A stretch of DNA of 64,000 bases from Holosporaceae bacterium. GTDB taxonomy: Bacteria > Pseudomonadota > Alphaproteobacteria > UBA3830. The stretch spans positions 95,512 to 159,511 of the forward strand of contig JAIRZM010000001.1 in assembly GCA_031267235.1 (NCBI GenBank), read 5' to 3'. A program made the position numbers and the translations under genes. How positions within the stretch are numbered: position 1 is the first letter of the stretch; the number at the start of each line of letters is the position of its first letter. Positions 13,797 through 16,091 of the stretch are shown here, piece by piece. Below the pieces are notes generated by a model, which saw nothing but the letters and a program-made list of their open reading frames with translations, ran no database searches and was not told the DNA's origin.

Positions 13797-16091
13797 CTAC
13801 AATCCCAGCATCTGCCAACCTGGATTTTCAACGTAATTTTTGATGTTGGCAAGAAACTCAGACGCATCCTTGGTATCCGAAATTCTATGATCGTAGGACA
13901 ATGAAATGTAGAGCATTGGTTTTATTTCCACTCCACTGTCCGTCGCAATTGGTCGATTGTGCATTTTGTGAACGCTTAGGGTAGCAACCTGAGGCGGAGT
14001 CAGAAGATCTGTTCCGATGAGAGATCCGTAAATTCCAGCATTCACTACGGTGAATGTTCCTCCGGAAACTTCTTCCAATGACAACGCTCCGTCGATTGCC
14101 CTTCTGGACAGAGAAATCATTATCCTTTCGATCTCTGCAATGGAAAGCGAGTCCGCATGCCTTATGACGGGAGCGGCGATGCCATCGTTGCCGCAGGTTA
14201 TTATGGATATGTCAAAATTATTTTTGTATATAATTTCGTCACCTCGGATGTGGGCATTGAAAACGCGATACTGTTTCAGCGCTGATATGCAGGCCGATAC
14301 GAAGAAGGGAGTAAATCCCAACCTAGTATTATGCTTTTGGGAGAAGGCTTTTCCGAAAGTTTTTTCCAGAGATAGAATGGCGCTCATGTCAACTTCATTG
14401 GAAACAGTCGAAATTACCGAAGCATCGTAGGAATCTTTCATTTTTTCCGAAATACGGCGTCGCAGCGGATCGATGGGCTCATTGCTATCATCGGGAGATG
14501 CGAAATATTGAGGCTTATTCCAGTTGTCGGCGTACATTTCCGGCGACGAATTCGGATCCGTTCTGATTAATTTTCTGACAATTTCACTTTGGACGTCCAA
14601 TTGTCTCTCCAATTTTTCGGCCTTTTCGACGACAACTTCTTCGCATAGCTCTATTTCATTTTCCACTTTCTCCAGAGTTCGTTCGGCAGCTTTTTCCGCC
14701 TGATTCATCAGCTTGTCGCCAAATTTTTCCGCCCTTTTAATAATGTACTCTTCCCGCTGCTCTATTTCGCATTCAACTTTCTCAAGAGTTTTTTCCGTCG
14801 ATCTTTTTATGCGATCCAGATGAGCGCCCACGTCCGCCTCAACTTCCAATGTAATTTCAGCAATGGAGTGATTCATCTGGCGCTGCACTTCTTTTACGAT
14901 GGACTCCAGAGTCAGGTTAGCGGTGTTTTTGATCTCAGTACGCATTGACTTTAGTATTTCTTCCCGAAATATCTCCGCTTCGCGGGTTGCCAATTCCGTT
15001 GCGGATTCGACTATTTCCTCTGCCTGAACGGATGAGCGTTTCTTTGCCTGACTGATTATGTTTCGAACAACATTTTCCGATTCTTTTACGGCGTGTTTCT
15101 GAGCCGAGTGGATTATATCTTTTTTTATGGCCTTAGCCTCCAGCTTGGATTCGCGTATGGTTTCTTCTATAATTTCTTTTGACAACAGTTCGGCTTCCCG
15201 ATGAGCCTTTCTCCGCGCCTGATCGAGAACCTCGTCTAGAGAGATTTTCGCTTTTTCCTTCGCTTCAATCTCGGCTTTTCTAAGAATTTCTTCCCGAATT
15301 TTTTCAGATTCCCGATGAGCTTTTCCTTTGGCCTCTTCTATGAGCTGTGCCTTGGTGTTTTCAGCCTCCAGCAGCGAGCCCTGAATGATTTTTTGATGCA
15401 TTTCGGCGGCGTCTTTGGCGGCTTTTTCTTCATATTCTCTAAGAATTTTCGCTTTCATCTCCTCTGCTTGATGCTGCGCTTGTTTCACGGCCTCATCTAA
15501 TATTTTTTCCTTCAATTTTTGCGCTTCTTCCTTTGCTTTGGCTTCGGTTTCCCTAAGGATGCTTTTGAAATTTTCCTCCGCGCGCTCAGTGACTTCGTCT
15601 GCTATTTTTTCCTCCAGAGCGATTTCATCTTCAACGATTTTCCTCTCGACTCTTTCGACGGCGCTTAATTCGCGAATATTTTCTTTTATTTCCTCCTCCA
15701 ACGGAACAGAAAGAGAATATCGCCGATTGTCTAGCGCAATTTCTAGATCTTGTTCCATTTTATCTTCAAGAATTTGAGTCTCTATCTCGCGGGATTCCTC
15801 CAGTACTTCCTCAACCATTATCCGTTGCCTGAGGTCAGATATGTCCGCATTCAGATCCGTTTCAATGATGGCTATCTTGCTTCCCGGGGGAATTGTTTCA
15901 CCCTCTTTAACGAGTATTTTAGCCAAAATGCAATCATAGCTGGACGTAATACCACAGGCAATGGATGGAGTTTCCGCATCGGCTATAACCTCGTTCTTCG
16001 AAATTTTGTCTCCAATTTTTTTGTACCAGGATGAAAGCGTCACCTCATCGGAAGATTCATCGAAATTTGGAACGATTATATCTATGCGCAT
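13797..16091 (-). CDS. Atypical 2-oxoacid dehydrogenase E2 (SucB-like) acyltransferase homologue with a degenerate lipoyl domain and a giant coiled-coil insert
   Basis: 764 aa. Residues 1-78 look like a lipoyl/biotinyl domain but carry ETPS where ETDK is expected. Residues ~85-510 are an E/K/A-rich helical region. Residues ~535-764 are an E2 catalytic domain (LGFTPFF, GGTFTVVN, PPQVATLSVH, LSYDHRISD). Confidence 0.8.
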   Translation of the reverse strand: MRIDIIVPNFDESSDEVTLSSWYKKIGDKISKNEVIADAETPSIACGITSSYDCILAKILVKEGETIPPGSKIAIIETDLNADISDLRQRIMVEEVLEESREIETQILEDKMEQDLEIALDNRRYSLSVPLEEEIKENIRELSAVERVERKIVEDEIALEEKIADEVTERAEENFKSILRETEAKAKEEAQKLKEKILDEAVKQAQHQAEEMKAKILREYEEKAAKDAAEMHQKIIQGSLLEAENTKAQLIEEAKGKAHRESEKIREEILRKAEIEAKEKAKISLDEVLDQARRKAHREAELLSKEIIEETIRESKLEAKAIKKDIIHSAQKHAVKESENVVRNIISQAKKRSSVQAEEIVESATELATREAEIFREEILKSMRTEIKNTANLTLESIVKEVQRQMNHSIAEITLEVEADVGAHLDRIKRSTEKTLEKVECEIEQREEYIIKRAEKFGDKLMNQAEKAAERTLEKVENEIELCEEVVVEKAEKLERQLDVQSEIVRKLIRTDPNSSPEMYADNWNKPQYFASPDDSNEPIDPLRRRISEKMKDSYDASVISTVSNEVDMSAILSLEKTFGKAFSQKHNTRLGFTPFFVSACISALKQYRVFNAHIRGDEIIYKNNFDISIITCGNDGIAAPVIRHADSLSIAEIERIMISLSRRAIDGALSLEEVSGGTFTVVNAGIYGSLIGTDLLTPPQVATLSVHKMHNRPIATDSGVEIKPMLYISLSYDHRISDTKDASEFLANIKNYVENPGWQMLGL

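Follow-up and report, generated by a model that had tools for sequence, protein, structure and literature searches.

An E2o-like protein family with a lysine-less lipoyl fold and a long helical stalk in Holosporales-like bacteria

The E2 subunits of 2-oxoacid dehydrogenase complexes are textbook swinging-arm enzymes, in which the lipoyl lysine is regarded as indispensable. What does an E2 homologue do once this lysine is gone? The question is raised by a gene in a 64,000-nt stretch of contig JAIRZM010000001.1 from the Holosporaceae bacterium assembly GCA_031267235.1 (positions 95,512 to 159,511; hereafter the window). The gene is complete in the list of open reading frames (ORFs), where it lies on the minus strand at 13797..16091 and runs from an ATG start to a stop codon at 13797-13799. 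Its 764-aa product, identical to NCBI entry MDR1375292.1 (labelled 'MAG: 2-oxo acid dehydrogenase subunit E2 [Holosporaceae bacterium]'), consists of three modules: a lipoyl-fold domain, a helical region of ~425 aa and an E2o-type catalytic domain. As judged from its sequence, the gene is a descendant of E2o (SucB) that is fixed in a Holosporales-like clade and is not a swinging-arm E2 any longer, and in all likelihood it has taken on a new role.

Pfam assigned Biotin_lipoyl (PF00364) to residues 5-76 (E 6e-7, above cut-off) and 2-oxoacid_dh (PF00198) to residues 534-758 (E 1e-55). An E3_binding domain (PF02817), which the canonical comparator P0057 does carry, was not found even at E<=1, nor was any further Pfam domain, including E1 and transketolase-like domains. 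The top NCBIfam models were SucB equivalogs, with scores under their cut-offs (306.1 vs 449 for NF004309; 301.3 vs 378.65 for TIGR01347). The protein fails three defining features of SucB (TIGR01347, PRK05704), namely the lipoyl lysine, the binding domain and the equivalog score. No signal peptide was evident when the N-terminal sequence was read directly, and the protein is predicted to be cytoplasmic. An AlphaFold2 (AF2) run on the monomer with the family alignment (mean predicted local distance difference test score, pLDDT, 72; predicted TM-score, pTM, 0.38) gave, in model numbering (one less than protein numbering), a beta head, a helix at 84-120, a low-confidence segment at 121-144, a helix at 145-235, a break at 236-239, one helix of 269 residues at 240-508, a low-confidence linker at 509-534 and then the catalytic domain. 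The preliminary description of this locus had noted that the 764-aa ORF starts with a lipoyl-like fold, which the ORF list, Pfam and matches to E2o lipoyl domains all confirm, and had proposed modelling its segments; the beta head, near-continuous helices and catalytic domain are the outcome of that modelling.

The same three-part architecture was found in at least 57 orthologues of 635-1908 aa. A database search returned 55 further proteins with this architecture (635-1204 aa), and an exhaustive search of representative proteins added P0077 (1908 aa). Scanning one genome per species, we found the gene in 40 genomes, and all of the source genomes are metagenome-assembled genomes (MAGs) or single-cell assemblies. 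Ruminant digestive tracts are among the sources (RUG and RGIG assemblies; red deer, roe deer, yak, goat and buffalo samples). The isolate codes Roe453, Iy174, Nc350, Ncb351, Cd354 and Hm464, and likewise Im510, Nm470, Kf353, Gsp477 and PG1894, are taken by us to denote termite guts. A recent review notes that a Holosporales clade from the guts of termites and other animals is uncharacterised (PMC11909080), and the hosts of the present family may belong to it. The family is sharply delimited, since its last member was retrieved at E 1e-171 and the next match was an ordinary 439-aa SucB at E 1e-60. Word-index searches with the stalk and the head returned only fragments (P0076, P0082 and P0083), with no alternative architectures among them, and our literature searches returned no description of this E2-like family. 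One MAG, Ncb351_bin115, holds two different members (716 aa and 930 aa) on contigs L012 and L035, which are either paralogues or the product of a strain-mixed bin.

Could such an architecture be an artefact, that is, a chimeric assembly, a frameshifted fusion or a decaying sucB pseudogene? One orthologue does look damaged: in L006 4608-6906 (MAG Iy174_bin27), an 84%-identical copy has a frameshift around residue 258, so that its two parts are annotated separately, as P0076 (260 aa) and P0005 (500 aa). This frameshift could be a sequencing error or a true pseudogene in that one genome. Elsewhere the architecture is uninterrupted, and the more than 50 assemblies that show it are independent and differ in host and laboratory, which speaks against the possibility, raised in the preliminary description, that the insert is an assembly artefact or a frameshifted fusion. 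Moreover, all three modules are under strong purifying selection, with ratios of non-synonymous to synonymous substitution rates (dN/dS) of 0.02-0.05 against an 84%-identical orthologue in L005, these ratios being approximate because dS is near saturation; a pseudogene or fusion artefact is ruled out by this selection. Tandem Repeats Finder detected no DNA-level tandem repeat in the gene that could have caused mis-assembly, so that repeat collapse or expansion is no explanation either. We regard an artefactual origin as effectively refuted.

The lipoyl-fold (barrel-sandwich) domain, which gave the Biotin_lipoyl match and is not lipoylatable, occupies residues 1-78 (15858..16091; this and all further coordinates within the gene are on the minus strand). 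Its sequence matches the E2o lipoyl domains 1ghj (3.5e-9) and 1pmr (4.6e-9), and its six beta-strands were modelled with block pLDDT values of 81-89. The former E-T-D-K lipoylation turn reads E40-T41-P42-S43 (15963..15974; codons GAA ACT CCA TCC), exactly as it had been read on the minus strand at 15974-15963 in the preliminary description. That account had also allowed for a lysine in the structurally equivalent beta-turn; a HMMER alignment to the E2o of PDB 9njt places S43 there, paired with the lipoyl lysine of 'IETDKV'. A lysine is found at this position in 0/55 full-length family members, in agreement with the first proposal that the protein's own arm cannot be lipoylated. Since the lipoyl lysine is gone, a swinging-arm cycle in cis is impossible.

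The loss of the lysine was accompanied by a distinctive pattern of conservation. Across the family, the former D-K positions read ST, PS, AQ, AT, SS, SM, PQ, PF and others, with one AR, and entropy reaches 2.16 and 2.20 bits in these columns, compared with a head-domain mean of 0.80 bits. They are two of the five most variable columns in an otherwise highly conserved head, and they are flanked by the invariant residues E40, T41 and C46. With a dN/dS of 0.04, the head is thus strongly constrained everywhere except at the former lipoylation site, and on this basis we conclude that it does something but carries no lipoate. The alignment additionally revealed a family-specific pair of cysteines inside the lipoyl fold, the invariant Cys46 and the near-invariant Cys54 (15930..15956), located 3 and 11 residues past the lost lysine. 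Their counterparts in E. coli E2o are Leu46 and Gly54, according to our alignment. A redox pair and a structural pair are candidate roles for these cysteines.

Between head and core, the protein carries a long helical region in place of the linkers and the peripheral-subunit-binding domain of an ordinary E2. Residues 85-515 are rich in charged residues and alanine (E 21%, K+R 19%, A 10%), a single proline occurs between residues 81 and 512, and the middle region is almost wholly helical in the AF2 model. The E/K/A-rich helical character first ascribed to residues ~85-510 is therefore seen in composition and model alike, and the replacement of linkers and binding domain that had been proposed along with it agrees with the missing E3_binding domain and the stalk found in its place. 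Surveying relatives for both the variant turn and the insert, as the preliminary description had suggested, showed that the stalk architecture, like the lysine-less site, is family-wide. The middle region is a conserved, family-specific alpha-helical stalk that replaces the Ala/Pro linkers.

The conserved module of this stalk consists of ~12 tandem 19-residue repeats spanning residues 166-400 (14892..15596). Sequence autocorrelation of the stalk peaked at lag 19 (z = 8.7), with further peaks at lags 38 (z = 8.0) and 57 (z = 6.2), and the repeat has the rough consensus [KE]-A-[EK]-x-x-[A/h]-x-x-h-h-x-x-[A/I]-x-x-x-A-x-x, positions 2, 5/6, 9/10, 13 and 17 being small or hydrophobic when the sequence is written in rows of 19. 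The hydrophobic period is 3.79 residues (3.78-3.80), with a power of 4.4 compared with a mean of 0.81 +/- 0.24 in shuffled sequences. A peak at period 3.8 is present in 51/56 members, in which the power is 2-7 at 3.8 and 0.01-0.3 at 3.5. A ratio of 19/5 = 3.8 belongs to the recognised periodicities of coiled coils and is strongly right-handed (PMC8016460), and the stalk has the 19-residue repeat, the five core positions and the 3.8-residue period that characterise it, so that bundling of the helices is predicted. The module is interrupted by a helix break at Q237-L240 (15372..15383).

Three other descriptions of this region were tried and rejected. A canonical heptad coiled coil does not fit, because the power is negligible at 3.5 and peaks at 3.8; of the 'charged coiled coil' in the preliminary description, the charged helical region stands, and a heptad gives way to a 19-residue unit with a period of 3.8. 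Single alpha-helices (SAHs) are defined by very high charge, few hydrophobic residues and the lack of a hydrophobic seam, and an ER/K SAH was rejected because the region, at 43% charged residues, also contains 26.5% ILVMFYW and 10% Ala in a strong regular period. Finally, a degenerate peripheral-subunit-binding domain in residues 85-165 had neither a Pfam signal nor a folded unit in the AF2 model.

The conservation of the stalk is uneven. Its first acidic helix, residues 85-121 (15729..15839; AF2 helix 84-120), is variable in sequence, with a mean entropy of 2.6 bits, and dN/dS is 0.20 over residues 81-165. A linker and the start of the long helix follow at residues 122-165 (15597..15728; pLDDT <50 over model residues 121-162), where a Y-x-L-S-V motif at residues 125-129 (15705..15719; consensus 'YxLSV') has a near-invariant tyrosine. 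Residues 166-400 have a dN/dS of 0.05 and contain invariant positions, and when they were searched against 1.84 billion representative proteins the homologues were family members only. The stalk is therefore not a mere spacer. A search of PDB sequences with the stalk gave one match only, to a designed helical binder at E = 0.25.

The distal stalk, residues 401-509 (14565..14891), lies within the continuous AF2 helix 240-508, varies in length and is the least conserved segment (entropy 2.69 bits). It contains a tandem duplication of residues 432-468 and 469-505 (14577..14798), which had been put at ~36 aa in the preliminary description and measures 37 aa, with 18/37 identical residues, an ungapped score of 82 compared with 19.7 +/- 6.2 (maximum 39) in shuffles, and a lag-37 autocorrelation of z = 5.7. 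The stalk module occurs in 2-4 copies in the longer members, and the linker length ranges across the family from 314 to 884 residues, reaching ~1,500 in P0077. The stalk has been lengthened by duplication, to between ~310 and more than 800 residues and to ~1,500 in that one member. P0077, which comes from the Logan assemblies, has ~700 residues of K/S/E-rich low complexity ahead of several stalk modules. At its end, the stalk passes into a flexible linker at residues 510-535 (14487..14564; pLDDT <50 over model residues 507-524, dN/dS 0.05), in which a conserved aromatic motif, S-P-E-M-Y-A-D-N-W-N-K-P-x-[FY]-F-x-S-P at residues 516-533 (14493..14546), precedes the core; W524 is found in 53/56 and P527 in 54/56 members.

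The C-terminal module, residues 536-764 (13800..14486), is an E2o-type acyltransferase core. It aligns with the E. coli E2o core 1c4t over 225 residues without a gap (1.5e-58), is 39-41% identical to E2o cores, and has the lowest dN/dS in the protein (0.017). The nearest structures by both sequence and fold are Dictyostelium Odo2 9njt, E. coli 1c4t/1scz and human, bovine and fungal E2o, and the top Foldseek matches of the core are E2o cores with TM scores of 0.82-0.92, normalised to the target. At the canonical DHRxxDG site, the protein carries D734-H735-R736-I-S-D739-T740 (13872..13892), within the segment LSYDHRISDT at residues 731-740, where the DHR..D motif had already been recognised. D734 is conserved in 56/56 members, H735 in 55/56, R736 in 53/56 and D739 in 55/56, and Asp734, His735 and Asp739 are together retained in 52/57 members. 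These three residues are the counterparts of Asp374, His375 and Asp379 in E. coli E2o, where Asp374Ala and His375Ala leave ~2% and Asp379Ala ~10% of the activity (PMC5986005). Taken together with this mutagenesis, the family conservation indicates that the experimentally important residues are kept. The counterpart of E. coli His348 is kept as well, that of Ser333 is Gly, and the pocket-lining motifs GGTFTV[VI]NAG and PPQVATLSVH are near-invariant across the family. Conservation within the protein is highest in the dyad and the pocket motifs, and for this reason we favour retained acyl chemistry.

Other changes in the core suggest that the description of this domain as well preserved, given in the preliminary account, holds for the Asp-His...Asp residues and does not hold throughout. 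V683 (14043..14045) stands at the canonical Ser/Thr of FT[ILV][ST]N (Thr323 in E. coli E2o). Of the 56 members, 37 have Val here and 19 have Ile; in canonical E2s the residue is Ser/Thr in 19/19. The glycine of DHRxxDG, position 740, is Thr in 56/56 members; this replacement had been noticed before and is real, and it falls after the second aspartate, not directly after His/Arg as then stated. We considered the Val/Ile as a sign of inactivation and dropped the idea, since E. coli Thr323Ala retains 45% of the activity (PMC5986005) and the universal change need not, by that measure, inactivate the protein. In P0053 and P0077 the catalytic motif reads DQR....

Is the protein, then, still an enzyme? 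The preliminary description had offered two readings, a scaffold and a lipoate-independent acyltransferase, and either may hold. The main rival to an acyltransferase is a catalytically silent scaffold, a pseudoenzyme whose self-assembling core, as a cube or as trimers, would bear long stalks with binding tips and help to structure or organise the symbiont cell, and this we consider possible though rather unlikely. It would account for the loss of the protein's own substrate arm in all members, for the replacement of the canonical Thr/Ser and of the DG glycine in every one of them, and for the change of the catalytic His to Gln in two otherwise intact members and of Asp739 to Ala in another. 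The stalk and the head are conserved as strongly as many enzymes, which would suit protein-protein functions; the stalk varies in length by module duplication, like spacer or ruler proteins; and E2 cores make good display scaffolds, an engineered E2p nanoparticle (8eqn) being among the structure matches. The retention of the catalytic triad of residues in 52/57 members, the near-invariant pocket and the lowest dN/dS of the protein in the core nevertheless argue against such a scaffold, because a pure scaffold would be expected to shed the catalytic dyad, as the E3-binding protein is generally known to have done.

The reading we favour, with a confidence somewhat short of even, is a neofunctionalised SucB whose core would still carry out chemistry with coenzyme A (CoA) or acyl-CoA, the acceptor being provided in trans. 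It is the most economical reading because it covers at once the lost lysine and binding domain, the gained stalk, the constrained head and the preserved core. The core would form CAT-like trimers and probably a 24-mer cube, since the conserved hydrophobic C-terminal segment G-W-x-h-L-x-L has the same length as in E. coli and the actinobacterial three-residue C-terminal insertion is absent. That insertion blocks trimer-trimer contacts and thereby confines actinobacterial E2p to trimers (bioRxiv 10.1101/2020.07.24.212647). With a period of 3.8 residues, the stalks would emerge from the trimers as right-handed bundles of helices, probably parallel, and each stalk would be capped by a lipoyl-fold head that acts as a protein-binding module, not as a cofactor carrier. 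The core would bind CoA or acyl-CoA and transfer the acyl group, most likely succinyl, to an acceptor other than its own arm, and the stalk and head would place or recruit this activity. Canonical docking of E1 and E3 is gone, as no peripheral-subunit-binding domain remains.

Several observations weigh against the neofunctionalised acyltransferase. His735 is changed to Gln in P0053 and P0077, Asp739 to Ala in P0056, and Arg736 is altered in P0016, P0018 and P0054, from which it follows that catalysis may be dispensable. The Val/Ile at the Thr323 counterpart and the Thr at position 740 are universal and may affect activity. The oligomeric state and the bundling of the stalks are predictions, the AF2 model being a monomer with a pTM of 0.38, and the 19/5 pattern could fit other helical assemblies too. 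Finally, E1o, E3 and a lipoylated partner may be encoded elsewhere in the genome.

This last point leads to a further explanation, that the protein is still the E2 of a 2-oxoacid dehydrogenase, with lipoyl groups supplied in trans and the E1 and E3 genes located elsewhere in the genome. In its favour, the active centre is an intact E2o-type centre, including the His348 counterpart. A free lipoyl domain can serve the isolated E. coli E2o core in trans, at about one-ninth of the efficiency (PMC5986005), and actinobacterial OdhA offers a precedent (PMC10415282; PDB 2xt6, 8p5r). Our evidence on partner genes comes from tblastn with canonical SucA, Lpd and SucB queries, taken from a Bacteroidota-like sucA-sucB-lpd operon (L045), against the window and 44 related loci of ~540 kb (~600 kb in all), and partner genes may lie beyond these loci. 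SucA had no match in this set, Lpd had only a weak match to a 304-aa flavoprotein at 24637-25551 that is without a dimerisation domain and looks like a thioredoxin reductase, and SucB matched family genes only. Pfam likewise detected no E1, E3, LipA or LplA among window ORFs >=250 aa, so that the absence of sucA and lpd from the window, noted at the outset, is seen by both methods. The gene is also an orphan, as first described, at the level of the locus in ~40 genomes: no sucA or lpd adjoins it in any of them, whereas clustering is usual, as in L045. An E2 working with lipoyl groups in trans would, in addition, lack the E3_binding domain and leave a conserved lysine-less head and a stalk of 300-1,500 residues unexplained. 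The habitats are anoxic guts, and related Holosporaceae were reported without a tricarboxylic acid (TCA) cycle (bioRxiv 10.1101/719211). On balance, we judge this explanation improbable.

How does the family compare with known systems? Its likeness to E2o/SucB (1c4t/1scz/1e2o, 9njt and human DLST 6h05) comprises the gapless core at the identity given above, the N-terminal lipoyl-domain fold with most conserved residues, the Asp-His...Asp residues and the hydrophobic C-terminal segment. It differs in having no lipoyl lysine and no peripheral-subunit-binding domain, in the stalk of 19-residue repeats that stands in for the Ala/Pro linkers, in the substitutions Thr323 to Val/Ile, Ser333 to Gly and DG glycine to Thr, in scoring below the NCBIfam equivalog cut-offs, and in being unlinked to sucA or lpd. 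Like the present family, OdhA/KGD (2xt6, 8p5r) combines an acyltransferase domain of E2o type with the lack of a functional lipoyl arm, and must find its acceptor in trans. OdhA, however, is fused to the E1o decarboxylase, borrows the lipoyl domains of E2p and has its own lipoyl domain deleted, whereas the present family has no E1 fusion, retains a lysine-less lipoyl domain and adds a long stalk.

The E3-binding protein keeps its lipoylated and subunit-binding domains and has lost the catalytic His. This protein (protein X of eukaryotic pyruvate dehydrogenase; 6h60, 1zy8) resembles our family as an E2 paralogue diverted to a structural or binding role, and is its mirror image, since the present family has lost the lysine and the binding domain and keeps the catalytic residues. 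The stalk recalls right-handed non-heptad coiled coils (tetrabrachion, 11/3; YadA/SadA, 15/4; the 19/5 'nonadecad'), with which it shares a period above 3.63 (here 3.79) and long unbroken helices attached to a trimeric domain, the latter being predicted here. It shows no sequence homology to them, the present protein is expected to be cytoplasmic, and its bundling is predicted only.

Combining these features, we can picture E2 cores assembling by themselves into a particle in the cytoplasm. Its eight trimers would form a cube with right-handed stalks of 40-200 nm, each bearing three decoy lipoyl domains, and the particle would be either a new kind of bacterial hub, organising or cytoskeletal in nature, or a tethered protein acyl- (succinyl-) transferase whose targets are held by the heads. 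This picture is offered tentatively, as one that we think doubtful. If true, it would represent a lipoate-free second life of a 2-oxoacid dehydrogenase subunit in endosymbionts without a TCA cycle.

In the window, the gene is flanked by tRNA-Leu(taa) at 16257-16342 (-) and by a PotA-like ATP-binding cassette (ABC) ATPase at 12254-13396 (-), the same flanks, tRNA-Leu and potA, as named in the preliminary description. Promoter and terminator scans at the gene were uninformative, and there was no synteny between the window and the two closest orthologue contigs. The neighbourhoods vary among genomes and contain housekeeping genes, with no E1 or E3 gene near. The sole recurrent neighbour is bacA/uppP (undecaprenyl-diphosphatase), which in 25 of ~36 informative loci is the gene immediately upstream, in the same orientation (for example L001 9149-9928, L007 2128-2913 and L015 9117-9911; also L018, L020, L024 and 19 other loci), at a gap of 50-110 bp from the E2-like gene, while the genes farther upstream vary (fmt-def, accB-accC and others). 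The two look like a conserved pair without obvious functional logic. No bacA was found within the 64-kb window, where the tRNA-Leu is upstream of the gene instead.

Other genes of the window give some indication of the lifestyle of its bearer. Genes for a membrane H+-pyrophosphatase (47329-49467, -), ATP-synthase F0 (a, c, b; 10755-12180, -) and a Na+/H+ exchanger (49792-51114, +) were present, and the window ORFs >=250 aa, from 64 kb only, included none that was recognised as belonging to the respiratory chain or the TCA cycle. Within this limited extent, the energy genes would fit an energy-scavenging symbiont. Several fast-evolving Holosporaceae are reported to have lost the TCA cycle and retained ATP synthase (bioRxiv 10.1101/719211), which matches the general flavour of the window and is not evidence on the present genome. 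The window further contains a TssK/VasE homologue of type VI secretion (59981-61279, +) and two mevalonate-pathway-like genes, for a GHMP kinase (37169-38146, -) and a diphosphomevalonate-decarboxylase-like protein (58189-59100, +). A 659-aa ORF at 27941-29920 (-) combines LpxI (N- and C-terminal domains) with LpxB, an apparent fusion of consecutive lipid-A enzymes, and a 147-aa ORF at 16466-16909 (-), between the tRNA-Leu and a tRNA-Arg, has a hydrophobic, signal-peptide-like N-terminus and no Pfam match.

The present findings bear first on annotation, because the label '2-oxo acid dehydrogenase subunit E2' will wrongly credit genomes with a step of the TCA cycle or of pyruvate dehydrogenase. 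They should interest specialists in 2-oxoacid dehydrogenases and in coiled coils, the hosts being uncultured: the stalk is a natural long helical repeat of period 19/5 for structural work on coiled coils, and the family could be used to test what lipoyl domains and E2 cores do without lipoate. A lysine-less family of at least 57 proteins from ~40 species, in which head, active centre and stalk are nonetheless constrained, is a clear natural re-use of the core of a multienzyme complex, and it may give insight into how an uncharacterised clade of Holosporales associated with gut protists lives.

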